The notes under the pieces are model-generated. The model saw only the letters and a program-made list of their open reading frames with translations. It was not told the origin of the DNA and ran no database searches. A program made the position numbers and the translations under genes. A DNA stretch of 62,790 nucleotides, the filler included, from Hausera hauseri (lineage: Eukaryota): NCBI GenBank assembly GCA_046269625.1. It is 10 parts of 10 records of this genome, joined end to end, with 100 filler letters (N's around TTAATTAATTAA, not from the genome) between each part and the next. Parts side by side here need not be neighbours in the genome. Positions count along the whole stretch, not along the records: positions 6,649 to 15,279 come from JBJURY010577671.1; 9 more parts are not named here. One strand, 5' to 3'. Of this stretch, positions 1 to 59,899 are shown piece by piece; within the stretch, counting starts at the first letter, position 1; every line of letters starts with the position of its first letter.

Positions 1-2600
1 CAATTCTTTACGTCAATGTAAATGCTTGGCCAATAGTATTTGTTTAATATTCTTTCCAATGTCTTTTTCCACGACATATGTCCAGCTAAGTATGAATCAT
101 GTTCAGCCATGAGCACTTCTGCTCTTAATCCTTTTGGTATGACGATTAGTTTTCGTCCCTTTCGTTCGTAATACAATACACTTTCTTGATTTGAATCTCC
201 AGTGACGCAATATTTGTGACCATATCTTCGCAGGTGCTTTCGCAACTGATGTCCTCTTGGTGTCTTATCATCATTAACGAATTCCACAATTTGTCGTATA
301 ACATTGTCTTTTCTCTGTTCAATAGTAATCTTTAATGCCTTGTCTAAGGTGAGAGTCCGTTGTCTCTCTACTAAATTTTCAAGGTGCGCCTTCCTCATTA
401 CTGTTACTGCGCTAGTTTTGGTTTTAAGTCTAGATAATGCGTCAGCATCAACATGTTTACTTCCAGGTTTGTATTGAAATTCGATATTGTATCGTGAGAT
501 CTCTTCAATCCATCGGTTAAATCTACAAGTTGGGTTATTTGCTCTCCCTTTTAAAGTTGTGACTGCTTTATGATCAGTGACGATTATAATCTTTTGTCCG
601 TAGACATACACATTGAAATGCCGCAATGCTTCTTTTACCGCCAACGTTTCCAATTCGGTTATGGAATAATTCTTTTCCGCTTTCTTTAATAAGCGTCCTC
701 CATATGCAATCGGGTGTTCCAATCCCTCGTCTTCTCGTTTTTGTGCTTGTTCATATCCAATACCTTCCTTACTGGCGTCTGTTTTGATTATGAATGGTAG
801 GTTGAAGTCGGGATATCTTAAAACAGGTTCGCTAGTTAGAATTTTCTTCATTTTGTCAAAAGCCTTTTGTTCAACATTGGTCCATTTCCATTTGATCCCT
901 CTGTTTAATAAGCGATACATGGGTGCATTTATCTTTGTGTTTTCTGGCACGTAGGTAGCGTAATATCCACATAATCCTAGCCAATGCCTCAATTCTTTTT
1001 GATTTTTTGGGCTCTATGCAATCCGATATTTTACTTAATAGTGATTTATCCGGTTTTGATCCTTCTTCTCCAACTATATGTCCGAGGTAAGATACAGCAT
1101 TCTGAGCCCATTTACATTTTTGAGGATTCAGCTTTAATCCAGCTTGCTCTAATCTCATGAGCGTACCTTCAATACCTTTTATATGATCCTCTTCCGTTTT
1201 CGATGCAATCATGACATCGTCCAAATAAGCGAACGCGTGTTCTAGCTCCATTAGCATTTTGTTCATTATCCGGGTGAAGATGGCTGGTTCGGCAGTTATC
1301 CCAAATGGCATGACATTAAATTCGTATATACCGTTGTGTGTCTTAAATGTTGTTTTATAGCGGTGTTCCTCTTCTATCTGTACTTGCCAATATCCATACT
1401 GTAGATCGAGCGTGGTAAACCATTTAGTTCCCGAAAATCTGTCTAAAGCTTCCTTTACTGATGGTAACGGAAAAAAGTCCTTCATCATAAGTGTATTTAA
1501 TGCTCGATAGTCGATACAAAACTGGTGTTTACTGGTACCTTTCTTCTTAACCATAAGTATAGGCGAGTACCAAGATCGGTAGCTTCGTCTAATTATGTCC
1601 GCCTTTAACATTCATTCAACTTCCTTAGTTATCTCTGGCCTTAGCTAGTGTGGAGGAGGATACCATTTCGGCATCTTTTGATCCTCAAAGTCTATTTCAT
1701 CGCCAGATCCCGGCTTTTTCTTAAGCGGAATCGTGAGCCTTAAAGTTTTGACTCGACCAATATCTTCTTCGTCTCTCGCGATAATTGAACTATAACGACA
1801 GAGCAATTCGTAAAATCGACAATGTGATTCTGGCGAGAACTTAGTTTCCACGTTGGGCGGAAATTCTGCACCCTTATATGGTTTCTCTTCAGCAGTGATT
1901 GATGATACTCTACACGTGTGTCTCAAAGTGGTATTGGCGTACAATTTAGTCGGGGTTGGTGCATTATTGGCTATCCTGATTCGCAGACGGCCTGTCGATA
2001 CTCTTGTCAAAACATTACTGAGTACGAGGTTTGCTTCGAGTGATTTTTTTGGTTCGAAATATACTGGCTGATCGACATCTTTATGTATCTGAGGATATAT
2101 TAGGATTTCAGTTCTGGGTGGTATAATTTCATCCACTGGAATCCACACTTCTCCAAATTTTTTGTCTTTCGTGGTTTTAACACCTTTTATTGGGCCAAGT
2201 TCTATCAACTTGCCTGCATTGAAATCGATTGCTATATTGGGTAATTGTCTAAGTAAGTCACATCCTAACACTAAATCATCTGTTAATTGCTTCATTACCG
2301 AGAATTTATGACGAAAAGATTGTCCTATTATGTGAATTTCTGGTTTCCATCGGAATTTACTCTTCGAAGATCGTCCGAAAGCTCCGATGCTTCCTGGGTC
2401 TGTCGTATGAAGTGGATATCATTGTTTCCGTAAGAATTGTGGAATCGAATCATATTTTATCAGTGATATTTCAGATTCTGTATCTATTAGTGCATAAACC
2501 TCGCAATCTTCCAACTGAATCTTTGCGAAGGGCCTGCCTTCGATTACTGTACCGTAATGGCTTGGTGCTATCTTGGGTTGTCGTATGGTAGAGACTTTGT
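1..2600 (-). pseudogene. pol: Gypsy pol: aspartic protease, RT, RNase H, integrase N-terminus
   Basis: PR reads YALIDTESEISLI near 2460-2500 (DTG changed to DTE). RT ORF 871-1611 has FCIDYRALN, MPFG, YLDD. RNase H has TDASKEGIG, ELETLA, TDHKAV, DALSR (about 430-800). IN has HDSYLAGH...YYWP (1-110). Confidence 0.95.
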
Positions 2601-2699
2601 AACCGTTGATGGTAACTTTAGTGGTTCCAACTTGCTGCTCGACTAACTGTCTTAACTCTCCAATTGGATATAGTGCATTATTCGTTTCATTCGCCTTTT

Positions 2700-3038
2700 C
2701 TACTCTCTGGTTTCTAACTGGCGGCTGAACATCTGAAGTGCGGAGATTTCGTGCTTTATGGCTTCGAGTAAATATCGATGGTGTTTAGGTATTGGCTTAG
2801 GTATTCTGGGCGAATAAGTTCTACCGTGGTCGTCGACTGCTGATCTATGGTGTGGCACCGAGGTTTTCGCTGTTTCGTGGATCTTACGCAATATCCCATA
2901 GCGTTTTGTTCCTTCGTAACGATCCTCTAGACTAAACGGCTTGCGATAGATGTCTGTCTGGCACGAACTCATAGACTGTATCTCGCAATCTTCATATATA
3001 GGCGCTGTTGGCGGCAATATTGGTAATGGTAGTTTCAT
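2700..3038 (-). pseudogene. PTAP-containing linker preceding the protease
   Basis: LPPTAPIYED...YEGTKRYGILRK is homologous to LPPTAPVYED...YEGTKRYGILRK in ORF 7901. Confidence 0.8.
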
Positions 3039-3133
3039 AACGGAGGCATGTTGCTATCAATCGGTACTACGTTTTTATCATATTGCTCATTTTCTTCATC
3101 CGTTTGTAAATACTCAAAATACACTGCTGCATC

Positions 3134-6100
3134 TCAGACTCCTATTATTCGTCCTACCTGTTGTTCTGCTTTGGCCTTTCTTATAGTCTCTTCCTTTGTT
3201 TCATCGATAGCGGTGGTTACCACCAACCGGTTTACTTCACCTGGGATAATTCCAACTTCTATTAATATTTCCGTATCGTCTAGTATCTTTCCTCGGAAAT
3301 AAAGCCTGTAGTTTAACTCATTAGCGTACCCGTTGTGCTTTATCCACAGTAATACATCACTTACAAGGGAGCGCGTAGTGAACTTTTGTTCTTTCTCGTC
3401 CATCCAATCTGATGCTATTTTTACTAGAATCGTCTCTTCTGCCTTTGCCTTTAGAATTTTGGCACATTCTTTGCGTAGAAGCTTAGGTATTGTACTGAAG
3501 ATCGTACCTTCACTAGCTAATTTAGTTAGAGTGGAGACTAGCTGTCTTAATTGAATTTCAGTAAGATTTATTTTAATCAGCTGAGTTAAATCCTTCTCGG
3601 TTTGCGCTGGGTCCAGAAGCATTTCTACGTTGAACCTTTGTTTCGGAGAATACATTTCCATTTCGCTTAAGTGTATTGGGGTTTTCGGATTTTCCGCAAT
3701 CATTGCATCTAAATAGGCTTCCCAATCTGGTTCATTTTCACTATCTGGCAGTTGACAGTTTTTCAACGGTGTATCGGCTGGCCTGCCCACCACTGTGGGC
3801 CACGTAGTTGCTCGGAGTTCTTGTAATTTCTGTTGCATCTGGACCATTTTCGTCGTTCGGATACATCGCCCATTAGCGGACGTTTGGTGGAGCAGTGTTA
3901 ACAACAAACATAATTCTTCGGGTGGAATTAGACTCTTTTCTTGATATTTCGTTAGCTCGGACGTGAAATCTCTTTGCCATCTTTGAATGAATTGTGACTT
4001 GTCAGCCTTTTCGACTTCTGTGAGAACATATTTGTTTTTGTAGACTTCAAGTTCTCTAGCTAGTTCGTCTAACCTTATCGCTCTCTGTTTTGTCTTAATG
4101 CAAGTTTCTTCGACTTGCTGTATCTGCTGCAACAATTGCCTTAGTTCTTCGTCACTAATTTCTGCCATTTCTACCATCAATAGCGTTAGTTCGTACATCT
4201 CATTAATGTTCTTTGAATCCGGATCTATCGCACATAATAATCTTTTACGAACTTGATCTCTTTGAAGTTAAGATGGAGGTCGTTCTTTATTTTAGTTAAT
4301 TCAGTATGAAGTCTTTGATCCGTTCCATCTCTCCACTCTTGGGGACGATGTAAGAACTTAACTGCTTCTTTAACTTGTGACCGGTATTCGGGACAAAAGT
4401 TCAAAGTTTTAAGATCTCGGATCGAGATTTTTTCAATAGGTTTGGCTGTCAACCAGCGTATTCCCTTCAGGCGGACGTCTGTTAATCGTGAGTAGAAATC
4501 GCAAGTCGCATTCCGCTTTCGAGTGAAGTTTGTTTCTTCAATCATTTTATATATATCGTTTAACACCATCATCTCTTCTTTCCTTTCGATAAAGTTTAAT
4601 TGACGTAGTGCCTCGAGTTGGGTTCGGATGTCGATCTCTGCTTTCATCGTATCTAGGTTTCGAGCGTCTTCTTCCAGCTGCTTCTTAAGGGTAGGTTCGC
4701 TTTCTGGGAATTCCTTTTTCCGATCGGCCACTAATTCATTCAACCTCGTTATCACTCCTGACCATTCTTTCCACTGGTTAGCGATTTTTGGCTTTGCCAG
4801 TATTGCTTTATTTAACATTTAGCGGGAGTCGTCTAGCTGGTCATCTGGACCTCTAATAAAATCGATGATCCGGTAGGCATAGTCAAACTCATCTTTATAT
4901 TCATCGAATTCTAGGGTACAAGTTAAAATTATTTTCTGTGTTTCATTATCCGATGGGTGCATGATCCTATTCCTTAGACTATATATCTGCGACCGCTTTT
5001 CAACTTCTATTTTAAGACGGTTTTCCAGACTAGTATATTGCCTTATCGCAGTAGAAGCGATTTTTATCATTTCCATTTAGGGCAAAATATCCAATACATC
5101 TATGCCCAACATCTCTAAGTCGTTTGCATCTCGTTCCTTGACCGGCTTCTTTTTCAGTTGCTCAATTACGATGAATCTAATTTCGTCCATGACACGCTCC
5201 AAATTAAGTGCTGCTCTTTTTAATTTCCGTTTGAGATCTAATGTAGCTAATAACGACTAAGCCCAGTTGACTCTAGTTTTAATGTTTTGGGTAGTTTTAT
5301 CCCATGTCTCCGGAAATTTCGTTTTGCTTTCGATCCACCGTTCTAATTCACGTTTCCACTGAACTAGGGTTTCTTTTGCCACCTCTTCTGGCTGATCCGA
5401 ATCTATAACTTCACTTAGTTTTCCTTCGCAACACAGTTTCATATTTTTATATAATCTTGCTAGAAACTGCTGTTCCTTTCCAGAAATATCCACTTGTTCG
5501 CTCATTGCTTTGAGCTTCTCTAGATTCTGTCGTAATGTTTCTGGGTTGCGACAATTCATCCTCATTCTCTTTAACTCCTCTGCATTTTTCTACGAGCGCC
5601 TGATTTTCTTCATTTTAGGGTCGAGTTTTTCTTCTCGTTCTGTTTCCTCTTCTCTCGTAGGTAAGGGACATACATCATTTATTTCATCTATAGATTTTAT
5701 CAGCTAACCCATCTCGCTGGGCGTAACTAAATTAATTTTCGAAATGTCGGAGGCACAATCCGTTTTACTGTCTAATGCGAATTCCGTATCTTTCTTTGTC
5801 TTTGATTTTTCTTTGATTATTTGGGATCTCGAATAATCCTTACGTTTCCTTCTAAGTGATGGGCTACGGCCTCTATTCTTGGTGATTTTAAGTATAAGCG
5901 GTTCGAGAAATTCTTCTCTTTCGTCGGCCTCTGCCTCTTTGGTTACCTTCTCTGCAGTATACTCAGGTCCTAAATCCGCTTTATCCGGAGTGTCAGGCTT
6001 CCATGATTCGGTTGGTTCTTTGTTTAACGCAGGAGCGGTCTTTTTCCGAGTCATATCACTTAGCCTTGGTGGGCCTATGGAATGTTCATATTCCGTTTTG

Positions 6101-6330
6101 GGTTCACGCAGGCCACGGTAAACTTCCATTAGTCGTAATTTGTGCACATATTCATTTCTAGCCACTAAAACTTTGGGGTCCTTAGTCTCAGGCTGGGCTT
6201 TTAGAAAACGTCGTAAATCCTGTATTTCGATAATCATTCCTGTGTCTCTACAAACACCGTAAATGGCTTCTAAATTTTCGTTTTTAATTACATTTGTTTT
6301 ACTAGGTTCCACAAACGATACACTTCGCGA
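3134..6330 (-). pseudogene. Cargo region between Gag NC and PR: charged, probably coiled-coil segments and a C-terminal ubiquitin-like domain
   Basis: ORFs 5704-6366, 5257-5565, 4819-5076 and 4225-4818 share one frame; 3134-4198 follows after a frameshift. Ubl-like motif RLYFRGKILDDTEILIEVGI at 3218-3436. Confidence 0.7.
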
Positions 6331-6336
6331 ATTCGG

Positions 6337-6548
6337 ACAGGACTTCGCTGTGTCCTTCTTGTCCACATGTGAAGCAGACTAAATTGCCATTTCTTCCAAC
6401 TCTTTGTCGACCATCTTTGTTTAACGGAGATTTCGATCTACTCGGATTTCTATTATAACCTTGCTGCGGTGGAGTCTGTCTAGGGTCTCCATATTGGCGA
6501 TTATTATCACTCCGGTTTTCATTGTATCGACTCAGGTTTTTAGAGCCA
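6337..6548 (-). pseudogene. gag: Gag C-terminus with CCHC zinc knuckle (frameshifted)
   Basis: Manual translation gives ...RSKSPLNKDGRQRVGRNGNLVCFTCGQEGH/(fs)/AKSCPNSRSVSF, i.e. CX2CX4HX4C after an R/S/N-rich region. Confidence 0.85.
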
Positions 6549-6648
6549 NNNNNNNNNNNNNNNNNNNNNNNNNNNNNNNNNNNNNNNNNNNNTTAATTAA
6601 TTAANNNNNNNNNNNNNNNNNNNNNNNNNNNNNNNNNNNNNNNNNNNN
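6549..6648. other. Artificial contig spacer (first of nine identical spacers)
   Basis: N-run, TTAATTAATTAA (stops in all six frames), N-run; 100 nt; repeated at eight other positions. Confidence 0.99.
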
Positions 6649-6649
6649 T

Positions 6650-7813
6650 TTTATTAAAATTAAAGAACTAAAGTTCAATGAGACTACAGGAAAGAGATAT
6701 GTGGACAAATCAGAAACCAATTCGAGAACACGTGAGGATGTATCAGAACACTCTACACCTATTATGTTAATTTCGGATCAGCATGGATTGAAATTTATTA
6801 AAAAAGAGATGATTTCTCGCTGTGATGTAGTGATGTTTGCTACAAACTATGAAGCGTTTTTCGTCGCAGAAACGGTGATAAGTGCGAAAACTTATAAGCT
6901 AGAAACATAGGACGTCCGTATTGAAGATTGCCTGAAAAATATGGATGATTACTTCTACTTTAAAGGGCAAGTCGGAATAACGGAATTATATAATAAAATA
7001 ATAATGAATGACTGCAAATTAAATACGGAAATCATGAGAACTAAAATGGCTCTGATATATGAAAAACCAGATTTGGCTTCTCTAATAATTCCCATGAGAG
7101 AAGGAATTTTCGGTCGGGTAACAGGCGAAGCATTGCTAACCTATGAATGCGAAAAGAGGGACGTACCCATCAACGTGGAAGAAAAACGTTGCATTCAGGA
7201 ACATCCTGTTATTTACCAAAGTATTCCTAGGTTAGCTACACCGCTGACAAGAGTGTTATTGGATAATGCTACCCAGCCAACCATCCCTAAAAATTGTAAA
7301 GCAAGCTTAGGAAAACCCATATTTAGACGTAGTGAAACAGACTGGGTAAGCTTGCCAAACGGAGATATTATTGCCGTTCCAAATTAACTGACAGAAACAA
7401 ATCTTGAGAAAGGAATTACAAACGAAAAATTTCAAGATACCTCATCAAAAGGTATATATAGGCCAAAAGAGATTGAACCATTCAGACAATTCCTCGCTTT
7501 TCCGCGACAGCGAACGCACGAATTGAACCGAGCCATGGCCTCAGTAGTAGACGATACATGATATAAAGCTAAATGGGAATCATTACTTAGCGTAAACCAT
7601 TATCTATTAGTACCCACGGAAATACTCTACAAAATTTGGGGAAGATTTTTGATTTTCGGACAAGCCGCATCCGGATTCTTAGTGATATATTTTATGATAC
7701 AAATGATTGAGGCAGTCATCCAAGCAGTAATAAATGGGTACAAAATATTTACACTGATTGGATTTTCATGTAAAATACTGATGGTGATCATAATGCCCTT
7801 TGGAAAATTCTAA
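6650..7813 (+). pseudogene. Chuvirus (Jingchuvirales)-like class III fusion glycoprotein, C-terminal half with membrane anchor
   Basis: GIFGRVTGEALLTYEC..CIQEHPV..PLTRVLL..NC..P.F..W, then KGIY..FLAFP..KIWGRFLIFGQAASGFLVIYFMIQMIEAVIQAVINGYKIFTLIGFS. This matches the recalled chuvirus G pattern (G..AGEV..C..CY.ELPV..P.TRIL; GIY..FP; W..F..FG..SAG..GY). One frame, with stops at 6908, 7385, 7559 and 7811. Confidence 0.85.
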
Positions 7814-7900
7814 AAGGCATACGAAGAAAACAGATGGAAATCGGACGTAGAACGCCATGTCGGTTATTATAATCGTAAACAAAGAGGAAGGCCTATATTC

Positions 7901-9247
7901 TTGCGGAAGGGGAAATTTACAAAAACCAATATGCACAGAAATAACTCACATGATGACGATCCTAAGGGAGGAGACGTACTTCCTGGGATAAACAGACATA
8001 AGACATACTCTGTCATTAAAGCGCTATTGCCTATGCTACCGCCCACCGCTCCGGTCTACGAAGACTGGGATAAATGGTCAATGAGTTCATATCAGGCGGA
8101 AATTTATAAAAAAACAATTAATGAAGAAGGCCCTTATGAAGGAACGAAACGTTATGGAATCCTACGGAAAATGTGTTACCGACAATCCACAGATGGTCCC
8201 AAGATGTTGTATTTTCCGAGAGAACCACAGAATATAGAAACTAGATCAACAGTTTGGGACAACCCAAGGTTAAAAACCTTCCAGAATACCGAACTACACA
8301 CTAACAATGAAGAACCATTAATTAGTACGCACAAAACGGCAGAATTGCATATAAAAAACACCGAGCTATATCCAAACGAAGAATTAAGACAATTGTCGGA
8401 GAATATAGTATCCTTCCCCGAAATCCGAATCAACGGACATAAAATATCGGCGCTGAAACGCTCGAAGGATACATCGAACTGCTTTGGAACAGTAATAGAA
8501 GGAAGACCTTTCGCCAAGATCACTATCGAAAATTGGGAAGCATATGCCTTAATCGATACAGGATCTGAGATGTCTTACATTAAAAATGATTCAATACCTC
8601 AAAAATTGGGAGGTCAGTTATATCCGCCGTTTACGAAAGATCCAGGAAGTACAGGAGCTTTCGGTCAAATGTCAAAACCAATGTTTAAATGGAACCCAGA
8701 AGTTCAAATAGTTGGACAATTTTTCCATCATGAATTTTCAGTTATGGAGCAATTAACCGACGACGTAGTCTTAGGATGTAATTTACTGTTCAGGCCAAAT
8801 AAAGGCGTAAAAAACGCTAAGGATAAAAAATTAGGAGAAGTGTGGATATCATTTGACGAAAACATCTCACCAAGAACAGAAATGATAATTTATGCCCAGA
8901 TACAGCAAGATGACGATCAACCAGTATATTTTGAACCAAGAGATACGTTGGATCCGAATATATTACTCAGCAATGTATTAACAAGAGTACATTCCGGTCG
9001 AGTACCAATCAGAATAGCTAATAACGCGCAAACTCCTGTCAAGCTCCATGCTTATACTATGTTAGGAGACACCTATAGAGTATCATCCATAACCATCGAA
9101 GAAAAGCCCTATAAATATGCTGAATTTCCACCCCATGTCGAAACTAAATTCTCAACCGAATCTTATTGTAGATTTTACGAATTATTATCCGCTACAAATC
9201 TATTATCGCTATGGACGAAGAAGATATTGGTAGAGCAAAAGCATTAA
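7901..9247 (+). pseudogene. pol: PTAP linker, retropepsin protease and degenerate beta-rich spacer domain
   Basis: LPPTAPVY, ALIDTGSEMSYI, DVVLGCNLL. Frameshift near 9190 relative to the contig 1 homologue. Confidence 0.9.
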
Positions 9248-10560
9248 AACAAACCATTCCACTCAAGGAAAAGCCTGGTTCAAACGAAGAAATAGATTTA
9301 GAAGACCAGAAGATGCCAAAATAATACCCTCCACCACATTCGCTAAGACCTGAGATAACGAAGGAAGTTGAACAAATGCTTAAGGCCGATATAATTAGGC
9401 TTAACTATAGATTTTGGTATTCACCAATCCTCATGTTTAAGAAGAAAGGTACCACAAAACATCGATTTTGTATTGATTACAGAGCCTTGAATAATCTTAT
9501 GATGAAAGATTCTTTTCCATTACCATCAGTAAAAGAGGCTTTGGATAGGTTCTCAGGAGCAAAATGGTTTACCACCCTCGACTTACAATCCGGATATGGG
9601 CAAGTAGAAATAGAGGAAGAAGACCGCTATAAAAAGGCATTTAAAACACACCATGGCGTTTATGAATTTAATGTCATGCCGTTCGGTATTACTAGTGGAC
9701 CAGCCATATTTACGAGAATGATGAATAAAATGCTAATGGGACTGGATCATGCTTTTGCGTACTTAGATGACGTAATGATAACATCAAGGACCGAAGAGGA
9801 ACACTTAAAGAACATCGAACATACGCTGATGAGATTGGAACAAGCCGGATTGAAGTTAAATCCGACGAAATGCTAATGGGCTCAAAAAGCAGTATCCTAT
9901 CTTGGCCATATAGTTGTAGAAGGAGGATCGAAACTGGATAAATCGTTACTAAACAAAATATCGGATTGCATAAAACCACAAAACCAGAAGAAGCTAAGGC
10001 ACTGGTTAGGACTTTGCGGATATTATGCAACCTATGTGCCAGGCAATTCAAAAATTAATGCACCTTTATACCGTCTACTTAAAAAAGGAATTAAATGGAA
10101 ATGCAGAGACGTCGAACAGAAAGCCTTCGACGAAATGAAGAAGATATTAACAAGCGAACCTGTATTACGATATCCAGAATTTAACTTGCCCTTTATAATC
10201 AAGACAGACACCAGAAAAGAAGGCATTGGTTATGAATTTGCGCAGAAAAGAGAAGATGAAGAATTAGAACACCCAATTGCTTATGGAAGACGATCTTTGA
10301 AAAAGGCTGAGAAAAACTATTCTGTTACCGAATTAGAAACTCTAGCTTTAAAAGAAGCACTTCGACACTTCAATGTTTACGTATATGGGCAGAAAATTAT
10401 AATTATTACCAATGACAAGGCCGTTATGACCTTAAAAGGATGAGCAAACAACCCGACATGCAGACTTAACAGATGGATCGAAGAAATATCAAGATACAAT
10501 ATTGAATTTCAATATAAACCAGGGAATAAACATATACACGCGGATGCACTATCGAGATTA
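9190..10560 (+). pseudogene. pol: Reverse transcriptase and RNase H
   Basis: FCIDYRALN, MPFG, YLDD; RNase H TDTRKEGIG, ELETLA, ADALSR; internal stops at 9874 and 10441. Confidence 0.95.
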
Positions 10561-10859
10561 AAGACGAAAACAAGCGCAATCACTATAATGAAAAAGAGTC
10601 AACTTGAGGAAATAATAGACCGCCAACGCGCTTTAACGATGGATAAAGCCATCAAAATCTCAACAGAACAAAGAAAGGTTAAGTCATCCATCAGATTATA
10701 GAATTTGCTAAAAAGGATATCATACCAAAGGGACGACAGTTAAAGAAACATGTACACCGACACGGACATAAATACTGCGTCTTAAATGACAAAAGCAATG
10801 AGGATATTTTATATTACGAAAGGAAAGGAAGAAAATTGGTAGTTATTCCAAAAGGACTA

Positions 10860-11940
10860 CGTACCGAAGTGCTGATGTCAGAACATGATTCTTAATTAGC
10901 CGGACACATGTCCTGGAAGAAGACATTAGAAAGAATAATGAATAAATACTTTTGGCCCAGTATCCATATTGGTGTAAAAAATTGGGTGAACGCTTGTGAA
11001 GTATGTTCAACTAAGCAAAAAAAAACGAAAAATTACATGGCCGAATTAAAACCAATTGATGTATCCGATATGCCCATGCAAGCCATGTCGATGGATATAG
11101 TAGGACCTCTTCCTACGATTCACAAGAACAATAAGTACATCTTAACTTCTATCGATCGATTAACTCATTTTGTCGAATTGATAGCATTAATTGATCAAAA
11201 GGTAGAAACCTTGGCAGAAGCCGTAGTAAGAAAAATCATTTGTCGATATGTACCCCCAGACCAGATACTCACAGATCGAGGAAGAAATTTTACCGGTGAA
11301 CTTTTCGAGAAGATTTCCAAAATATTTAAAATCGAACAGTTGACGACTACTGCGTATCATCCTCACTGTAATGAGATGGTAGAACGAATGAACGCAACCG
11401 TCATACGTATATTATCGGCAGTGGTTGCAAAGGACCAGAAAGATTGGGATGAATTTCTAGAAGGAACCCAATTTGCAAATAATACTACACCACATCCAGC
11501 GACAGGATTCACCCCATTTTTCATGATGTATGGACGTTAAGCCGTGTTACCTACGGATTTAGGAATGACGCCATACACGGTTAATCCCGAGTATTTGGAG
11601 CAAAACTTTGCAGAGGTGCTACAAACGCGATTGCGGAAGTGTTGGAAAATCGCCAAAGAATTATCCCAAGAATATTAAGAGCAGTTTAAAAAGCAGTATT
11701 ATAAGAAAGCGAAACCGCATGATATAGAATATGGAAATTGGGTTTATGTGCATTATCCAGTAGCCAAAAAAGGCACATCATTAAAATTAACTAATACAGG
11801 CAGAAGACCGTACGAAGTTACCAGAATTACGCCGACCACAGTATACATTAACAAAAACGGAAAGGAAAAAGTCGTGTCAATACAAAGAGTTGCCAAAACA
11901 GACATACGGCCAAATAAACGTTACAACTTACGCCAACCCG
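10860..11940 (+). pseudogene. pol: Integrase (HHCC, DDE core, GPY/F-like C-terminus)
   Basis: EHDS*LAGH...CEVC, MDIVGPLP, TDRGRNF, NEMVERMN, TGFTPF, GRRPYEV, RYNLR. Confidence 0.93.
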
Positions 11941-11949
11941 ACACAAAAA

Positions 11950-13379
11950 CTTCTTCAATAGTTGCTAGACCGATATTGCACGTTCAGATAGTTTTAGAAC
12001 TATCGTTAACTGCTTCGTACATTCGGAAAACACAAACTCAATGGTGGCACGATTATTCTACACTAGGAGATATACATGGAATTCAGAAAAGTGGATCAAA
12101 ATTGGAAGCTGTTGAAACGGAAAAGAAACCAACAGCCGAAGAAATCCAAAGACAAGAAGACATTAAATTATTACAATCAATGACAATTCATTATTATTCA
12201 CCAAACTCCGTATGTGTTGGATTTAAAGCTTGGAAACCGCATCACGATTTCGATGATTTCAAATTGTCTTACTTGACGTAACCACAAAATAAGCGAGAAA
12301 TTGTGATTTTGAGCCTGCAGACTATATGCAGTGTTGCGACATAGACTTTGGACGCACTTATAACCTCACCTATCGTCCATACTTACCTTACTCATCCGAA
12401 GTTTATATTGAAACAAAGTTACAAATTCAATTAGTCATTTCTGCATGGAATAGATATCATGGAATAAAACCGAACGAAATGTTGCGATCTGTTGACCCAG
12501 ATATAAGAATATTAGACGAAAATATCCGGAGAATCTCCGTAAATAAGGAAAAACAATGCATTCAAGTCGATGCTCGAACAGGATTAACTCTTAGTCAGGG
12601 AATTAATATCCATTTGAAGCAGCAGTTAGACCGACCCCGAAAATAGGATACTGTTCTATTCGTACAGGCGTGCAACATCCATGTTGTAAAGTACCCGTGA
12701 ACCAAGAGTTCAAAATAAAGTTCGACTTATATGAGGTACGGCAAATAAACTAAACATACAATTACGAACTTACTATCCAGAAAATAGAATTTGGAATATT
12801 TCAGTAGAAACAACCACCAAAAGACCGACTACTCAAGTTGGTGCCATTAAGAATACCATTACATCGGGCAGCATGCCTAAGAGAAAATTAGAAAGCATAC
12901 CTATTAAATATTCGGCGCATCAACTTAAAATTGTTTTTCATGGAGTAAAAACAAAATTACGATATACACATAAGTTGTCGAACGACATATAATAATCAAA
13001 TTGTAACATTATTTAAAATCATTTACCAAACGGAGTGCAATTTACTAAAACCACAATTCAAATACTTAGTACAGGTGCATGCAGAAAACAAACAATCCCA
13101 AACAATTACATTGCATATCTTAGACAAAATTCACGCGGAGTAGCATACGCATGAAAATATAGACGACGAAACTACAACGTCATTTACTACTCGAGCGCCA
13201 CTAGGATCAACTGCCTTACCGATTGCATCTATTGCGTACTGTCAACGTCTGTTCTCATTATATTAATTGCGATTTTTCGACTAGTTACCAAAAACTGTTA
13301 TTCTAAGCGTCATAAAAATTCGGAATGGGATTTAAGGGAGTTGGAAAACCCCGTAGACCTATATGATAAAATAAACTGA
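11950..13379 (+). pseudogene. Putative type I membrane protein with fibronectin type III-like repeats, continuing from the integrase frame
   Basis: Hydrophobic ILHVQIVLELSLTAS after RYNLR. FN3-like SPNSVCVGFKAW..FKLSY..DIDFGRTYNLTYRPY..SSEVYIETK and NLLKPQFKYLVQVHAENK. Thr-rich stalk, TM-like PIASIA/(fs)/VLSTSVLIILIAIFRLV, tail ending LYDKIN* at 13379. Confidence 0.6.
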
Positions 13380-13451
13380 CAATTACAGATCAGGTTATAC
13401 TGTCATCAAACAAAGAATTGGTTTTGGTTTAAGACCATCCTTTGTTTTAAG

Positions 13452-13477
13452 ATTAACCTTTATGTTTTCATTTTTAG
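13452..13477 (+). promoter_or_regulatory. Putative 3' splice acceptor
   Basis: ATTAAC branch-like motif, T-rich tract, TTTTTAG, immediately before an ORF with no ATG. Confidence 0.5.
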
Positions 13478-13478
13478 A

Positions 13479-14003
13479 TTGGTAGGTAATCAGATCCATA
13501 TAGACCCAAGCCGAATTAGAATCGACGCCAAGGGAGTCACGAGCCGACTTAGCATCGACAATGAGGAAAACACAAGTCGACTGAGTATCGACGAATTTTT
13601 ACAGCGATACGTAACAGTGCGAATTCCGAATTTAAAGGCCATCTATAGGCAAATCAATAGGGAGTTACAAGGAAAGAGCTTCGTGCAGTATGTGAAAGCT
13701 GGCGAGATACCAAATGGGTTAAAAGGGACAACCGAGGAGGCCAGAGAGGTATACTTGTACATATGGAGAGAGGACAAAGATTCTAGGGCATACCCCTTCA
13801 AACAGATCACTCAATATTAAGTGGATAAAGAGCAGAAGATATATGTACACTTGGCCGACGGGGAAATTTACTATCGGATGAAAGATCAGAAATGGGACTC
13901 TTTCCAAGAAAGGCAAAGCCGATTTAGTACGTTTGTAGTTGATAGTAGGAACTTCCGTAACTATGAGTTGGAATTTCGTGTGTCTGCCTTACCTGTAAAA
14001 TGA
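13479..14003 (+). pseudogene. Accessory ORF of unknown function (two same-frame pieces split by a TAA at 13818)
   Basis: ORFs 13479-13820 and 13821-14003 are contiguous and in frame. Confidence 0.5.
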
Positions 14004-14636
14004 TGATCGAAGTAACGGAAGAGAAAACAATACCCATCTCGTTGCCGTTCTTAGAGTTTAGACAAAGGCCCACGGAAGAAGAACATGACGCACATCTACA
14101 TTCGTTTAGATTGGTAGCAGATGAAAGGAATCTCAGGATTGCCGCAATAAACTATGGGGAAGGAGAAGACGGAAATTATATTCCGATCGAAATATCCATC
14201 CGGGTCGAAAACTGGGCCGAGGTCTATTCGAGAATCATTAACCCGAGAAAGAAAGTATTAGAGACTTATGCAGATGTTACCGGGATTAACAGAGCAATTA
14301 AATCATGGGAAGGATACCAAGTTAGTGGAACAAGAAGTAGCACAATGCCTCTATGGATACGTCTTAGTGGGGTATCAAGTAGAGAGGATGATAAAGAAAT
14401 TAGCCATACCGGTAACGCATATAGCCGGAGTGAGAGATATAGAAACCCACCCGACTGTTATTAGACAAATGGAGATTAATGTTGAAGAGAAAAAGGGTCA
14501 ACTACCACCGACCGTGGAAGGCCGTTTTAAGTTAATGGTAGAGACCATGACCGGAGGAAATATAAAAATAAGCAGACTGTTGACTGCTAATCAAAGATCC
14601 AAATATCTAAGGGATATAAATGCTGGATTAAAATAG
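14000..14636 (+). pseudogene. Accessory ORF of unknown function, probably frameshifted
   Basis: Overlapping ORFs 14000-14464 and 14268-14636; ATG overlaps the previous stop (ATGA). Confidence 0.45.
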
Positions 14637-14795
14637 GAACACGAATGGATTCCAAATAACCCCGGACAGAACCTTCGGAGTTTTCCCAAGCTAGAAGGAA
14701 TCAGCTCACGTTTTAGAAAAAACTTTCGTTCTTACTCAGCACCAAAAAATGTCGAAATTACACCGAAATGGAACTATCAAATAACCATTCAGGGA

Positions 14796-15251
14796 TTGAA
14801 AACTGAGAAAACAGATAATCAGTGGCAAACCAACGAGAAACCAGTCCAAAGCTATGACACCTCAAGCAATAATAATCCATTTAAAGTACCCGAAATTGTT
14901 CAGAAATACTTAGAAGAAAAAGATAAGAGTTCAGAAATCGAGAGTGAAAAGACAACTAAAAGAGAAACATCCTTCTTCGATTACTTATTTAAGAAGAGAA
15001 GTAAAGAAGAAGAAAAGGGATCAAAAGAAGGACGCAGACCAGACAGAAAGGATTTAAAACCAACACGACCAGATAAACCAAGAACACCAGCAGAAGAACT
15101 CTCAAAAACAGACATGCAGCCCCGTATCGAGAAGTCCACGGAAAAACCAAGCAAACAGAAAGAACAAATAACAGAAATAAACGTCCTACGGAAGAAGACA
15201 TCCACGGAAGATGTTCACTACGCCACTGCAGCAGATTATCCCAGGATGTAA
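14796..15251 (+). CDS. Charged low-complexity accessory ORF fragment
   Basis: K/E/P/T-rich 151-aa ORF on the element strand. Confidence 0.35.
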   Translation: MKTEKTDNQWQTNEKPVQSYDTSSNNNPFKVPEIVQKYLEEKDKSSEIESEKTTKRETSFFDYLFKKRSKEEEKGSKEGRRPDRKDLKPTRPDKPRTPAEELSKTDMQPRIEKSTEKPSKQKEQITEINVLRKKTSTEDVHYATAADYPRM

Positions 15252-16211
15252 ATAGCCACAGAATATTATAGCAAACAAANNNNNNNNNNNNNNNNNNNNN
15301 NNNNNNNNNNNNNNNNNNNNNNNTTAATTAATTAANNNNNNNNNNNNNNNNNNNNNNNNNNNNNNNNNNNNNNNNNNNNCCGCTACCCCAAAGAACGCGC
15401 CCGCTTCGACCGCGAATACTACTCCTCCCTCGCACACCACCGCCATGACGCTCCCAACGGAACCACTTGATATACCCCCGCCAGACCCACGCACCCGCCC
15501 AACCCAATCCATCCCCTCCTCACCTCAGATCACCAACCCGAAAGCCCTCTCCCACCGTACGCCTCAATCCCCGCTCCCCCGCCTCAGCCCGTGTCCGTCC
15601 GTGTCCGTCCGTCCGCACTGTCTTCTTGTTTATTATTCTAATATGTTCCCCTTTCATTTAAACGCCGTTTTGTTTTATTGCACGTCTATATGATTTACAT
15701 TAGAATTATTGTGTAAGTAATCAGAAGAATCTCGCAGCCAGACAATTTTCACTGTTGATTTTACGTAACTGGTAGACCATTTCTTGAATGCGTCATCACT
15801 TTAACCATCCTAGATGTGCCCCATGGAACGATTTCCATAAGTGCTTCAATGATACGCTGTCGCCGGTGACAAAATTAGTGATTTGTTCGCCGCTGAGGTT
15901 TTGTAGCTAATAGCTCATTCTACATCTGCCGAGGGAGGTCAAACCAAGCTGCCTACATAACTAGTGACCACATTCTGTAAAGAGGTTGCGTCAATAAATA
16001 GTCGGTTTCATATTCGTACACCGGCCATGGTGGAATAAGGGGAAATAAAGAGGAGACAAATTAGAGAGCATGACTGCTACAGCAAACAGTAGAGCAATGG
16101 ACGGGGTAGATGTACTGAACACTTTCACGTGTATAGATCGAACAGGGGATTCAAATGGTGCCTTGGAGTCAAACGAAGTGAAAAATGTTGTTGGGCACGA
16201 GTGTTACGCCG

Positions 16212-20116: not shown

Positions 20117-23100
20117 TTCGTTCGTTCCTTCATTCTTTCCTTCTTTCTTTCGTTCGTTCGTTCGTTCTTTCGTTCGCTCCTCTGTTCGTTCCTTCGTTCG
20201 TCCGTTCGTTCGTTCGTTCCTTCCTTCGATCCTTCATTCGTTCTTTCGTTTTCTTTTTCGCTCGTTCCTTCGTTCCTTCGTTCCTTCGTTCGTTCGTTCG
20301 TTCGTACGTTCGGTCGTTCGTTCGTTTGTTTCTTTATTCCTTCCTTCCTTCCTTCCTTCTTTCCTTCCTTCCTTCGATCGTTCGTTCTTTCGTTCGCTCC
20401 TTCGTTCTTTCGTTCGTTCCTTCGTTCCTTCTTTCTTTCTATCTTTCTTTCGTTCGTTCCTCCGTTCATTCCATCGTTCTTTTGTTCGTTCTTCCGTTCT
20501 TTCTTTCTTTCTTTCGTTCGGTATTTCTTTCTTTCGTTCGTTCGTTCATTCCTTGGTTCGGTCCTTCGTTCGTTCTTTCGTTCCTTCGTTAGATCGTTCG
20601 TTCCGTCGTTCCTTCCTTCCTCCCTTCCTTACTTTGATCTTTCCTTCTTTCTATCTTTCGTTCCTTCGTTCATTTCTTCGTCCTTTCGTTCGTTCGTTCC
20701 CTCCTTCCTTCCAACCTTTTTTCCTTCGTTCGTTCCTTCCTTTCTTCATTCCTTCCTTCCTTCATTCCTTCGATCGCTCGTTTTTTCTTTCGTTCCTTCG
20801 TTCATNNNNNNNNNNNNNNNNNNNNNNNNNNNNNNNNNNNNNNNNNNNNNNNNNNNNNNNNNNNNNNNNNNNNNNNNNNNNNNNNNNNNNNNNNNNNNNN
20901 NNNNNNNNNNNNNNNNNNNNNNNNNNNNNNNNNNNNNNNNNNNNNNNNNNNNNNNNNNNNNNNNNNNNNNNNNNNNNNNNNNNNNNNNNNNNNNNNNTCG
21001 TTCGTTCCTTCGTTCTTTCCTTCGTTCTTTCCTTCTTTCTTTCGTTCGTTCGTTCGTTCTTTCGTTCAGTTTTTTGTTCGTTTCTTCGTTTGTCCGTTCG
21101 ATCGTTCGTTCGTTCGTTTCTTCATTCGTTCGTTCTTTCGTTTCTTCCTTCCTTCCTTCCTTCCTTCCTTCCTTCCTTCCTTCCTTCCGTCTTTCTTTAT
21201 TTCCTTCCTTCGATCGTTCCTTCTTTCGATCGTTCGTTCGTTTCTTCGTTCTTTCGTTCGTTCCTTCGTTCTTTCCTTCGTTCTTTCGTTCGTTCGTTCG
21301 TTCTTTCTTTCCTTCCTTCTGTCGTTCTTTCGTTCGTTCTTTCCTTCTTTCTTTCGTTCTTTCGTTCTATCGCTCGGTCCTTTGTTCGTTCCTTTGTTCC
21401 TCCGTTCGGTCGTTCGTTCGTTCGTTCCTTCATTCTTTCTTTTGTTCTTTCTTTCGCTCGTTCCTTCCTTCCTTCCTTCCTTCCTTTCTTCCTTCCTTCC
21501 TTCTTTTCGTCGTTCTTTCTTTCGTTCTCTCCATCGTTCGTTCCTTCGTTCATTCGTTGGATCTCTCTTTCGTTCGGTCCTTCCTTCTTTCCATCGTTCT
21601 TTCGTTCTTTCTTNNNNNNNNNNNNNNNNNNNNNNNNNNNNNNNNNNNNNNNNNNNNNNNNNNNNNNNNNNNNNNNNNNNNNNNNNNNNNNNNNNNNNNN
21701 NNNNNNNNNNNNNNNNNNNNNNNNNNNNNNNNNNNNNNNNNNNNNNNNNNNNNNNNNNNNNNNNNNNNNNNNNNNNNNNNNNNNNNNNNNNNNNNNNNNN
21801 NNNNNNNNNNNNNNNNNNNNNNNNNNNNNNNNNNNNNNCGTTCGCTCCTTTGTTCGTTCCTTCGTTCCTTCATTCGTTTGTTCGATCTTTCTTTCTTTCG
21901 TTCCTTCGTTCATTCCTTCGTTCGATCGTTCTTTCGTTCGTTCCTTCGTTCGTTCGGTCGTTCGGTCGGTCGTTATATGGTTCTTTTATTCTATCCTGCG
22001 TTCTCTCGTTCGTTCGTTCTTTCCTACTTTCTTTCCTTCGTTCGTTCTTTCTTTCTTTCGTTTGTTCTTTCCTTCAAACATTCCTCCGTTCGTTCCTTCG
22101 TTCGATCCGTCGTTCGGAGGAGGAGGAGGATCTTTTTGCCTATCGTGCGTTTTTCCGTTCGTTCTTTCCTTTGTTCGTTCAATCTTTCGTTCGTTCTTTG
22201 CTTCCTTCATTCCTTTCTTCCTTCCTTCCTTCTTTCGTTTGTTCTTTCGTTCGTTCGTTCGTTCTCTCCTTCCATCCTTCATTCGTTCCTTCCTTCCTTA
22301 CTTCCTTCGTTCCTTTGTTCCTTCGATCGTTCGATCTTTTGTTCTTTCCATCGTTCTTTCGTTCGTTCTTTCGTTCTTTCTTTCGTTCGTTCATTCCTTC
22401 GTTCTATCGTTCTTTCGTTTGTTCCTTCGTTCGTTCGTTTGGTCGGTCGTTATATGGTTCTTTTTTTCTATCGTGCGTTCTCTCGTTCGTTCGTTCTTTC
22501 CTACTTTCTTTCCTTCGTTGGTTCTTTCTTTCTTTCGTTTGTTCTTTCCTTCAAACATTCCTCCGTTCGTTCATTTGTTCGATCCGTCGTTCGGAGGAGG
22601 AGGAGGATCTTTTTTTCTACCGTGAGTTCTTCCGTTCGTTCTTTCCTTTGTTCGTTCAATCTTTCGTTCGTTCATTGCTTCCTTCATTCCTTTCTTCCTT
22701 CCTTCCTTCTTTCGTTCATTCGTTCCTTCCTTTGTTCTTTCTTTCCTTCCTTCGTTCGTTCGTTCTTCCCTTTGTACTTTCGTTCGTTTTTTCCTTCTTT
22801 ACTTCCTTTCTTATTTCCTTCCTTCCTTCCTTCATTTANNNNNNNNNNNNNNNNNNNNNNNNNNNNNNNNNNNNNNNNNNNNNNNNNNNNNNNNNNNNNN
22901 NNNNNNNNNNNNNNNNNNNNNNNNNNNNNNNNNNNNNNNNNNNNNNNNNNNNNNNNNNNNNNNNNNNNNNNNNNNNNNNNTCTTTGTTCTTTCTTTCTTT
23001 CGTTCCTTTCTTTCTTCCTATCTTCCTTCCTTCCTTCCTTCCTTCATTCCTTCGTTTGTTCGATCGTTCGATCAATCGTTCGATCGTTCGTTCGTTATTT

Positions 23101-25890
23101 CCTTCCTTCCTTCCTTCCTTCGATGGTTCTTTCTTTCTTTCCTTATTTCGTCCTTTCCTTCGTTTTTTCTTTCTTTCGTTCTTTCGTTCTTCCTTTCGTT
23201 CGTTCGTTCGATCATTCTTTAGTTGCTTCGTTCTTTCTTTCGTTCGTTCTTTTGTTCTTCCTTTCGTTCGTTCGTACTTTCATTCTTTCGTACGTTCGTT
23301 CGTACTTTCTTTCGTTCGTTCCTCCGTTCATTCCATCGTTCTTTCGTTCGTTCTTCCGTTCTTTCTTTCTTTCTTTCGTTCGGTATTTCTTTCTTTCGTT
23401 CGTTCGTTCTTTCGTTCATTCCTTCGTTCGTTCCTTCGTTCTTTCGTTCGTTCCTTCGTTAGATCGTTCGTTCAGTCGTTCCTTCCTTCCTTCCTTCCTT
23501 ACTTCGATCTTTCGTTCTTTCTATCTTTCGTTCCTTCGTTCATTTCTTTGTCCTTTCTTTCGTTCTTTCCTTCCTTCCTTCCTTCCATCCTTCCTTCCTT
23601 CTTTCGTTCGTTCGTTCCTTCCTTCCTTCATTCGTTCCTTCGATCGCTCGTTCTTTCGTTCGTTCCTTCGTTCGTTCTTTCGTTCGTTCTTTCCTTCGTT
23701 CTTTTGTTTGTTCTTTCGTTCGTTCGTTCGTTCGTTCGTTCCTTCTCTTGTTCTTTATTTAATTCTTTCGTTTGTTCGTACTTAATTTGTTCGATCCTTC
23801 CTTCATTCCTTCCTTCCTTCCTTTCATCTTTCGTTCGTTCCTTCGTTCATTCCTTTGTTCTTTCTTTCCTTTGTTCGTTCATTCGTTCTTCCATTTGTTC
23901 TTTTTTTCCTTCTTTCGTTCTTTCCTTCGTTCTTTCAAAAGTTCCTTCGTTCGAACGTTCGTTCCTTCGTTCGTTCGTTCATTCGTTCTTTCGTTCGGTC
24001 CTTTGTTCGTTCCTTCATTCGTACGTTCGTTCGTTCGTTCGTTCCTTCGATCCTTCATTCTTTCTTCCCTTATTTCTTTCGCTCGTTCCTTCGTTCTTTC
24101 GTTCGTTCCTTCGTTCGTACGTTCGTTCCTTCGTTCGTACGTTCGGTCTTTCGTTCGTTCGTTCGTTCGTCCGTTCCTTCGTTCGTTCATTCGATCTTTC
24201 TTTCCTTCGTTCCTTCGTTCCTTCGTTCCTTCCTTCGTTCATNNNNNNNNNNNNNNNNNNNNNNNNNNNNNNNNNNNNNNNNNNNNNNNNNNNNNNNNNN
24301 NNNNNNNNNNNNNNNNNNNNNNNNNNNNNNNNNNNNNNNNNNNNNNNNNNNNNNNNNNNNNNNNNNNNNNNNNNNNNNNNNNNNNNNNNNNNNNNNNNTT
24401 TTTCCTTCGTTGGTTCGATCGTTCGTCCGTTCTTTCGTTCCTTCTCTCGTTCCTTCTTTCATTCGTTTTTTCTTTCGTTCTTTAGTTCAATCGGTCCTTC
24501 CTTCTATACTTCCTTCATTCTTTCCTTCCTTCCTTCGTTCTTTCAATCTTTCGTTCTTTATTTCTTTCGTTCGTTCGTTAGTTCATTCGTTCCTTCTTTC
24601 GTTCGCTCCTTCTTTCCTCCGTTCGTTCCTTCCTTCGTTCCTTCGTTTCTTCGATCTTTCTTTCTTTCGTTCCGCCCTTCGCTCGTTCCTTCATTCCTGT
24701 TTTCCTTCCTTCCTTCCTTCCTTCCTTCGTTCCTTCGTTTCTTCGATCGTTCGTTCTTTCGTTTGTTCTTTATTTCGTTCATTCCTTCGTTCACTACTTC
24801 GTTCAATCGTTCGTTCGTTCGTTCGTTCGTTCCTTCCATCTTTCCTTCATTGCTTCCTTCCTTCCTCCCTTCCTTCTTTCATTCTTTCGTTCGTTTGTTC
24901 GTTCGTTCTTTCTTTCTTTGCTGCGTTCGTTCGTTCCTTCTTTCGTTCGTTCGTTCTTTCTTTCGTTCCATCCTTCGTTCATTCCTTCGTTCATTCGTTC
25001 GTTCCTTCGTTTCTTCGATTATTCGTTCTTTCGTTCGTTCTTTCTTTCGTTCCTTCCATCGTTTGTTCCTTCGTTCAATCGTTCCTTCACTCTTTCCTTC
25101 CTTCCTTCCTTCCTTCCTTCCTTCCTTCCTTCCTACCTTCGTTCGCTCCTTCTTTCCTTCGTTCCTTCCTTCTTTCGTTCCTTCGTTCCTAAGTTATTTC
25201 ATTCGTTCATTCGTTTGTTTCTTCATTCGTTCGTTCGTTCGTTCGTTCCTTCCTTCCTTCCTTCTTTTTTTCCTTCCTTCGTCCGTTCGTTAGTTCGTTT
25301 TTTTATTCCTTCTTTCGTTCCTTCCGTCGTTCCTTCCTTCGTTCGTTCGTTCTTTCGTTCCTTTTTTCTTTCGGTGGTTCGTTTTTTCTATATTGCATTC
25401 GATCGTTCATTCGTTCGTTCATTCCATCGTTCCTTCCTTCGTTCGTTCGGTCTTTCGTTCGTTCTTTCTTTCCGTGATTCTATTTTTCTATACTGCATTC
25501 GTTCGTACGTTCGCTCGTTAATTTTTACGTTCGTTGTTTCCTTCGTTCCATCGGTCGATCATTCTTTCGATCGTTCCTCCGTTCTTTCTATCGATCATTT
25601 TTCGGTTCGTTCGTTCGTTCGTTCTTTCGTTCGTTCCTTCCTTCGTTCGTTTCTTCCTTTGTTCGTTCGTTCGTTCCTTCCTTCCATCCTTCCTTCATTC
25701 CTTATTTTATTGCTTCGTTCATTCGTTCGTTCTTTCCTTCTTTCCTTCCTTCCTTCCTTCCTTCATTCATTCATTCCTTCCTTTTTTCCTACCTTCCTTC
25801 CTTCGTTCCTTCGTTCCATCGTTCGTTCCTTCTTTCGTTGGCTCCTTCTTTCTTTCATTCGTTCATTCGTTTTTTGCTTCATTCGTTCGT
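20117..25890. repeat. Degenerate (TTCG/TTCC/TTCT)n tetranucleotide satellite with assembly gaps
   Basis: The whole contig is a pyrimidine-rich 4-mer repeat with four internal N gaps. Confidence 0.98.
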
Positions 25891-26817: not shown

Positions 26818-28069
26818 TAAATTGTCATTTTTTTCTCCAAAAGGTTTTTAGGTTTTAAAAAACTCAGTATAAAGAGCACACCATATATTACATGCATAAA
26901 ATCTGATTAAATTTAGTTTGTTTTTATGCAATCAGAGGAATTCTGGACAGCAGGGAGAAGTGCATTTGTGTTTCACATTTCATCTTACAAGATGGATCCA
27001 TTAACCCTTATTAAAAATTGATACAGTGCTATTGAGAATCCATAGTGTCAGGAACTGAAATATCATGATATTTTAGTGTAACAATATATTCTTACACCCC
27101 TACAACATGTGTAAAGTAATTTTGCCGATAACGATTTTTGCTTAACTCCCCCCTCCTCCTCTACCACTATTTGAACTGTACCCACCCTGTGCACCCCCTT
27201 GCCTAAATGCTCCGGTGCTCACGTGAGCCCAAAATGTGTGAATAATGCCTAAACAAAGATGGAAGAAAAGGCATGTATAGGAAGGAAAACATGACAGAGA
27301 TGCAGAAAGACAACACGTAAGTTGGACTGATAAAGGTTTGCTGATCAATAAACAGCATAGGTACTTTTTAACACCAGCTGATCTGAAGCAGTCTGAGCTG
27401 TGATGAAAACTAATACTGTAGAAAACTCCACCATACATTTCTGAGGGAAGACTTTAAAAATTAAATGTATTCAGCCAACCCATTCTCACTCCCAACTCAT
27501 CACATATTTACACTTTTCAAGGGTCCTTATTTGTCCTTCTGCGTCAAAGGCTGACAGTGGACATCCTGAGTTAGTTCTGGGGTAACTTGGTGCAAATGAA
27601 TGCCTCAGATCGATTCTGCCCATGAACACAACAAGCAGGATCTGAGAACAGGGGCAGTCCTGCAGAGTCCAACTGTGCCTGCTTAATTTTGTGCTAACTT
27701 AACACAGCGTTTCGACCACACCCTAATCCAAGATGGCAGCATTGTTTGGTCTAACTGTACCAGATTGACTACGTGGGACAAAATTATTCATTGCTGATGG
27801 ATTGATGTGCCTGAGCCCTTCATGACAAAGGCAAGTTATCTATCTTTCTCATTTCTCTGCATTAATTGATTTTTTTCATTTTGGGATTAGGTTTGGTGTT
27901 GATTTTAGCCTGCTTTGTTCACAGCACCATTTCTACTGGTCTTCTTCCTGTTAATAAGTGGTGTGTCTGAACGAGCTGTCAGTAAAAGCAGGAAGTAAAC
28001 TCTGGACTAGAAACCTACAGCATTGGATTTTATTTAAAAGCTCTCCATAAACTGACATAAACTGAGAGA

Positions 28070-31000: not shown

Positions 31001-31573
31001 ACCACTGTCATCTGTATACCAGTGTTGGATGGACTGCCTTATCCACCCGCAGATTTGTTCATTGGCATATTCTTGTTTACAAAGCAATCTTGGGTTTACT
31101 TCCCCCTTACCTCCTGTCCCATATCAATAAGAAAAACATTGGAAGTCATTTTCTCCGCTCGGATGAACTCATTTTATTAACAGTACCTAAGGTTCGCACT
31201 GACTTTGGCAAAAGATCCTTCCACTTTGCTGCTCCCTCAGCCTGGAATCTACTGCAGAAAGATTTGAAGTTGAAGGAGTCGGTTTCTTTGAATGTTTTTA
31301 GGGTCATTCTTAATCAGTTTGTACTCAAGACATTTGTTTGTAAATGTTTTAACTGATTTTGTTTTCTGTTTTAGTCCTGTCTTATCTTTTATGAGTGTTT
31401 CTTGTTTTACTGTTATTTATCATGAAATGTTTTTAATGTAGTTTAATACCTGTAGTGTTGCATTTTGTAATATTTGTGTGCTGCTGCCATTCTTGGCCAG
31501 GTCTCTCTTGAAAAAGAGATTTTTAATCTCAATGAGTTCTACCTGGTTAAATAAAGGTTTAATAATAATAAAA
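28070..31573 (+). mobile_element. L2-clade LINE, near full length ORF2 (APE endonuclease + RT) with one frameshift near 29440
   Basis: HLNVRSL, LSESWL, DLNWD, NDHC (EN); NYRPIS, QSGFR, LDLSKAFDTV, GVPQGSILGP, YADDT (RT); 3' stem-loop then CCTGGTTAAATAAAG and an (AAT)n tail. Confidence 0.93.
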
Positions 31574-41630: not shown

Positions 41631-41697
41631 AAATAATGTAGTCTGTACAACAACAAACTACAAATACCATTCCCATGCTCATTCAGACATTACTACC

Positions 41698-59883: not shown

Positions 59884-59899
59884 CTAAATATAAATGAAG

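Follow-up and report, generated by a model that had tools for sequence, protein, structure and literature searches.

A fusion glycoprotein (G) of viral type that lies directly upstream of a retroelement protease, and in the same reading frame, raises the question of whether the two were once made as one protein. The original prediction held that the ancestral product was a G-Pol, possibly a Gag-G-Pol, polyprotein in which Pol formed the cytoplasmic tail of a class III fusogen. We examined this in a stretch of 62,790 nucleotides from Hausera hauseri, called the window below, and in homologous proteins, loci and contigs. The window is made of short, unrelated contigs of 4-9 kb, possibly of mixed origin as to organism, joined by nine identical 100-nt linkers (e.g. 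6549-6648, composed of N44, 12 nt and N44, and 15280-15379), and adjoining contigs are not necessarily genomic neighbours. G is encoded on the contig at 6649-15279 (8.6 kb). As this contig begins inside G behind the artificial linker, G is visible from its C-terminal part only, and gag, the LTRs and the beginning of G are unseen for the window copy. A reading of 1-6548 and 6649-15279 as a single head-to-head locus was rejected, since the gap between them is the artificial linker. A repeat search for LTRs found none inside the 8.6-kb contig or in the homologous locus L002, both of which are possibly cut short.

A class III glycoprotein in frame with a decayed pol

Translation of 6650-9247 on the plus strand yielded a single frame with internal stops at 6908, 7385, 7559 and 7811 only, the next stop being at 9245. 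About 62 stops are expected from base composition as against the four observed (P for four or fewer about 1e-22), and the remaining two plus-strand frames contain 69 stops each over the same region. The claim that the ORFs here share one frame interrupted by point stops was thus borne out. Along this frame follow the G ectodomain, a hydrophobic stretch (7637-7804), the segment KAYEENRW...PIFLRK, the PPTAP linker (8039-8053) and the protease motif, in the order that had been predicted. A single BLASTP alignment to an intact homologue covers residues 1-467 and crosses all four stops. That no capsid domain separates G from the protease also held, as the Pfam scan matched no capsid family between them.

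The first 388 codons of this region encode the C-terminal part of a fusion glycoprotein of the mononegavirus/chuvirus family. Residues 32-380 of G, with X at the stops, match PF24664 (Monjiviricetes_fusion; E 5.5e-38, 130.8 bits, cut-off 27) over profile positions 245-591 of 653. G alone had no phmmer matches in the PDB at E≤1; with a profile of 133 G sequences, herpes gB accounted for 34 of the 36 PDB matches at this level, the best of them weak (E 0.0045). The AlphaFold model of the partial G monomer reached a pLDDT of 84, and all 16 Foldseek matches at E≤0.001 were herpes gB; their TM-scores were low (0.29-0.36) and their rmsd values high. Together, the family match and the Foldseek result bear out the prediction that 6650-7813 (+), with its premature stops, belongs to a class III (gB-type) fusogen; what is present is its C-terminal part, and domain I lies off the contig. 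A search of viral and metagenome contigs with one G ORF as query returned no related loci.

The tail of G and the linker carrying PPTAP, a possible ESCRT late motif, occupy 7814-8500 (+), as seen from translation and from the alignment to the homologue. The aspartyl protease follows at 8501-8788 (+; PF00077, E 7e-4, 20.2 bits, slightly below the cut-off of 20.7), and next comes a spacer between protease and reverse transcriptase (8795-9190, +) that our own HMM found homologous to the spacer of G-Pol polyproteins (E 1e-15). The spacer has the position of the dUTPase-like domain of the planarian element Burro and may be its counterpart; no dUTPase match to it was obtained in the PDB or Pfam. Reverse transcriptase (RT) and RNase H (9193-10701, +; PF00078, E 1e-33; PF17919, E 5e-30) are read in another frame and integrase (10686-11950, +; PF17921 and PF00665) in a third, both with stops. 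Pol is therefore broken as well, with frame changes near 9193-9247 and 10686-10701 and further stops. The Pfam matches give the Ty3/gypsy-type domain order PR-RT-RH-IN, and the integrase of one homologue had Ty3 Gag-Pol as its best PDB match. The window copy is dead, and very probably is a decayed member of a multi-copy Ty3/gypsy retrotransposon of the Burro-like Gag-Env-Pol type. By eye, an apparent short remnant of a second protease start precedes the protease (about 8410-8460), in this copy as in the sister element described below.

Homologues, the stop at 7811 and the origin of G

A search of 1.84 billion representative proteins gave 415 matches, of which 150 are listed, and 19 were included in a Pfam scan. 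Nine of the ten best of the 415 continue, C-terminal to G, into a Pfam aspartyl protease on the same polypeptide; for one of the nine the protease match is weak (E 0.002). Among the best 21 of the 415, 12 run into a protease motif, five are fragments too short to reach the junction and four end without a protease; P0006 and P0015 terminate 10 and 3 residues beyond the junction, and no protease is present in P0012 or P0019. Six proteins (P0002, P0004, P0017, P0021, P0152 and P0155) contain G, protease, RT, RNase H and integrase in one chain, and the loci L001 and L002 encode the same domains in stop-free ORFs of 3426 and 3703 aa. In L002 the order is zinc knuckles, a ubiquitin-like match, G, two proteases, RT, RNase H and integrase. 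Gag domains lie N-terminal to G in P0009, P0011 and P0021, and a zinc-knuckle gag precedes env in the same ORF in L002, P0009 and P0021. Sub-threshold accessory matches ahead of env were to ubiquitin-like (L002, E 0.018) and Bcl-2-like (P0006, E 1e-3) domains, and P0152 has an ankyrin match. The proposed single-chain product thereby found its counterpart in intact homologues, including the Gag portion that had been considered possible, and the ancestral product was very probably a Gag-G-Pol polyprotein of a Burro-like Gag-Env-Pol Ty3/gypsy element.

Several homologues depart from this layout or show peculiarities of their own. In P0055 and P0119 G comes after integrase-region domains instead. 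Tandem aspartyl protease motifs follow G in P0152, P0009, P0003 and L001, with up to eight in P0152. In P0114 immunoglobulin domains are fused N-terminal to a complete PF24664 glycoprotein, a possible host fusion or gene-call artefact, and P0002, a full G-Pol polyprotein, is listed under a bacterial MAG as a hypothetical protein and is likely eukaryotic contamination.

The stop at 7811-7813 (+) comes directly after the anchor and is followed by an open frame of 477 codons, and in two close homologues the chain likewise ends no more than 10 residues away; from these points one might take G for a separate gene ending at 7811, with Pol made alone from its own start or by programmed read-through. 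We compared copies using X1, the only public run containing the stretch, which is one run of contigs and possibly derives from the window's own organism or sample. In X1, 27,213 contigs align to the G-bearing contig. At codon 7811-7813, 72 of them, with 5820 of 5850 summed depth (which does not equal copy number), differ from the window and read non-stop. At 7385, 22 contigs with all of the depth do the same; among the contigs listed, the codon comparison spans these two stops, with 6908 and 7559 outside it. Of 137 homologues aligned over the C-terminus of G, 133 continue beyond 7811, the stand-alone G proteins by about 60 residues, so the stop truncates even G's own tail. It is a copy-specific decay, as the prediction required, and the window copy has many further stops and frame changes. 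We regard a separate G gene as extremely improbable.

Whether G was an old part of the element or a recent acquisition was approached through trees. The quick G tree comprised 60 sequences, of which 45 were taken from the 114 stand-alone proteins; the others were window G and every one of the 14 proteins in which a protease-like motif follows G. In this tree, in which named chuvirus G was not among the rows, window G fell on a long branch within a set of 10 rows that includes eight G-Pol proteins (SH-aLRT 97), apart from the stand-alone glycoproteins of about 650 aa. For nine homologues, the main groups of the G tree recur in the RT tree. Among the homologues, window RT forms a long branch by itself and thus possibly represents a separate lineage or host. 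The term 'chuvirus-like' in the original prediction therefore stands at the level of the family profile and fails beyond it, as G groups in the quick tree with retroelement G-Pol polyproteins and not with stand-alone glycoproteins.

A sister element on a separate contig (1-6548, minus strand) bears on the same issue. It has 72% DNA identity to the window copy over pol, with RT 82% identical, and contains a zinc knuckle, about 1000 codons of helical sequence, a weak ubiquitin-like stretch (about 3200-3400, E 0.018, sub-threshold) almost abutting the PPTAP linker at about 3045, and then protease, RT and RNase H. No G was found in it with 13 homologues as queries. At its position 3045, 29 X1 contigs depart from the sister sequence, and none of the eight pieces listed bridges 3045-3072, where depth is non-zero. 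The sister likely lost env by deletion. One could instead suppose that a chuvirus G was recently inserted into a retrotransposon copy as an endogenous viral element and came to be in frame by chance. The match to the Monjiviricetes fusion protein family would agree with such an insertion, as would the sister that is without G at the corresponding place, but the proteins nearest to window G are G-Pol polyproteins, at about 30% identity, rather than stand-alone glycoproteins, the G and RT trees broadly agree, X1 contigs cover G as well as pol, and the 29 contigs leaving the sister at its junction fit a deletion there. A recent insertion thus has an almost negligible probability in our estimation. 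Since G groups with G-Pol polyproteins and its tree broadly agrees with that of RT, these sequence comparisons suggest that G is likely an old resident env, long co-inherited with RT.

Other contigs of the window carry further sequences. Two non-LTR retrotransposons, whose frames stay open over long distances, and a decayed gypsy element of unrelated kind occupy 28061-31356 (+), 36262-39258 (-) and 44279-47631 (+). There are also an ORF with a weak Mab-21-like match (32409-33758, +), a TBP-like ORF (41386-42081, +; E 1e-7) and a long T-rich simple-repeat array (20117-25890). A cluster of ORFs at 52363-54718 (-) is without Pfam matches; by eye it may resemble capsid-region genes of Polintons/adintoviruses. 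At 58934-61009 (-) a RING-finger ORF neighbours a second ORF, which has a match (E 2e-6) in the exonuclease ORF following the polyprotein of L002, and PF00929 is found in both L001 (10617-12107) and L002 (12085-13473). Possibly 58934-61009 belongs to a related element as its accessory region.

Predicted membrane topology and a probable second membrane module

A G-Pol chain would place Pol on one side or the other of the membrane depending on how many hydrophobic segments cross it. The membrane-proximal and main transmembrane helix of G is predicted at 7637-7735 (+) from hydropathy and corresponds to a continuous helix, residues 315-370, in the model. It is followed by a second hydrophobic patch (7736-7804, +) that is likely membrane-associated without crossing. 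In 66 proteins with the motif, which include near-duplicates and the window copy, the main helix reached KD19≥1.6 in 64 and the second patch in eight; the window copy is one of these eight, its second patch having an anchor-like score of 2.19. An internal signal-like hydrophobic stretch right before mature G was seen in 12 of the 14 homologues tested. Hydropathy thus supports the prediction of Pol as the cytoplasmic tail of G, with a single anchor after the G ectodomain, and one membrane pass would leave Pol in the cytosol, its necessary place of action.

In the mechanism that we propose, Gag and the accessory domains would be made in the cytosol, and the internal signal sequence would then direct G into the ER lumen, where signal peptidase would free its N-terminus. 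The one anchor would bring the chain back to the cytosol with PR-RT-RH-IN tethered to the tail of G, to be cut off later by the element's own protease, and Pol would thereby be loaded at the budding membrane. From a further signal-ectodomain-anchor pair, located after the integrase, a second membrane protein would arise.

The ORF could be continuous and most of the G nevertheless be translated from an mRNA that is spliced or started internally, the full polyprotein serving for Gag and Pol only. Retroviruses normally express env from a spliced mRNA of its own (as described in part of PMC10309623), and Gag, Env and Pol at 1:1:1 would by our own reasoning be awkward. Against this, a polyprotein that runs through a signal and an anchor must thread the membrane for Pol to be cytosolic, and the extra module that L001 carries between two proteases is also a signal-plus-anchor pair, which fits selection on the topology of the whole polyprotein. 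We therefore consider a mainly spliced G very unlikely, and threading of the whole chain is the reading we retain.

The second module is a recurrent feature of the homologues. Beyond the integrase, P0002, P0004, P0152, P0155, L001 and L002 each have another signal-like stretch and another anchor, and in P0017 only the signal is clear. In the loci the modules lie at 9040-10050 of L001, with the additional pair between the proteases at 4740-5340, and at 9990-10950 of L002. In the window a decayed second membrane module occupies 11952-13295 (+), with a weak signal-like stretch (11952-12014), a frame-broken ectodomain and an anchor (13206-13295), and our own HMM of seven homologue modules matched 12934-13119 (E 1.6e-5 in a search of six sequences). 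When the modules that follow integrase in five distant homologues were compared with one another by BLAST, no E value fell below 0.02, and the window had no match to any of the five. Pfam named no family for the module. The model of the L002 module, built from a shallow alignment of four sequences (pLDDT 66), has two beta-rich domains of seven strands each with a helix between them, and the Atlas leads, all under 0.9, are FN3-like. Farther downstream, 13380-15251 (+) holds more broken ORFs, together about 600 codons, which are covered by X1 contigs and had no Pfam or Atlas match.

Relation to known elements

In-frame env between gag and pol is already known, from Burro, published in 2019, and from the GAG-ENV-POL elements surveyed in 2026, and the window copy is one more, divergent lineage. 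In the parts of the accounts covered here, planarian Burro/GYPSM1, a giant Ty3/gypsy element, has env in frame between gag and pol in one ORF (Arkhipova and Yushenova, 2019, PMC6431247), and this env matches mononegavirus fusion glycoproteins, with ubiquitin/SUMO-like and BCL2-like domains ahead of it and a domain between protease and RT (PMC6431247). Burro and the window element both have env directly ahead of PR-RT-RH-IN in frame, and the sub-threshold ubiquitin-like (L002) and Bcl-2-like (P0006) matches of the homologues may correspond to the domains ahead of env in Burro. The likeness is one of description, and the section of PMC6431247 covered here is silent on membrane topology and on a second membrane protein after the integrase.

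GAG-ENV-POL Ty3/gypsy errantiviruses with an HSV/gB-type ENV were reported from Nematoda, Bryozoa and Platyhelminthes (Chary and Hayashi, 2026, PMC13524379); as far as that text describes them, they have Ty3/gypsy pol, a gB-type env ahead of pol and multiple copies in common with the window element. By eye, the Schmidtea sequences of ENV domains I-II (PMC13524379) resemble, at their end, residues about 36-72 of window G and its homologues. The terms 'polyprotein', 'in-frame', 'single ORF' and 'fibronectin' are absent from the main text of PMC13524379 as seen here. Anakin elements of mosquitoes, in the portion of PMC7642597 considered (Dezordi, 2020), carry chuvirus G and thus have the same glycoprotein family in an LTR retrotransposon; they are BEL/Pao, whereas the window element is Ty3/gypsy. 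Cer1, from what part of PMC10309623 states, is without env and was dropped as a comparison.

The endogenous retroviruses of nematodes, a nematode clade, reportedly have a continuous gag-env-pro-pol ORF. As cited in the part of PMC13524379 covered here, these elements (Sacco et al., 2022) have ENV before POL, like the window element. Within the portions of the Burro and GAG-ENV-POL literature considered, we found an env-less sister element described nowhere, and likewise no description of the second membrane module, though Sacco 2022, Grohme 2018 and the figures of PMC13524379 may contain one.

The homologues offer a testable topology rule and a pointer to a second membrane protein. As a tentative proposal, somewhat more apt to be wrong than right, these elements would be enveloped retroviruses organized like alphaviruses or flaviviruses, with a single polyprotein that passes through the ER two times. 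Two surface proteins would result, the gB-type fusogen and a post-integrase membrane protein of two beta-sandwich (FN3/Ig-like) domains that would bind the receptor or mimic a host receptor. The polyprotein would accept an extra module only if signal and anchor came as a pair, and sisters lacking env would be carried along by intact copies. Herpes gB requires a partner, and the topology rule and the second membrane protein bear on how invertebrate retrotransposons gain infectivity and on whether their gB-type fusogens require one too.
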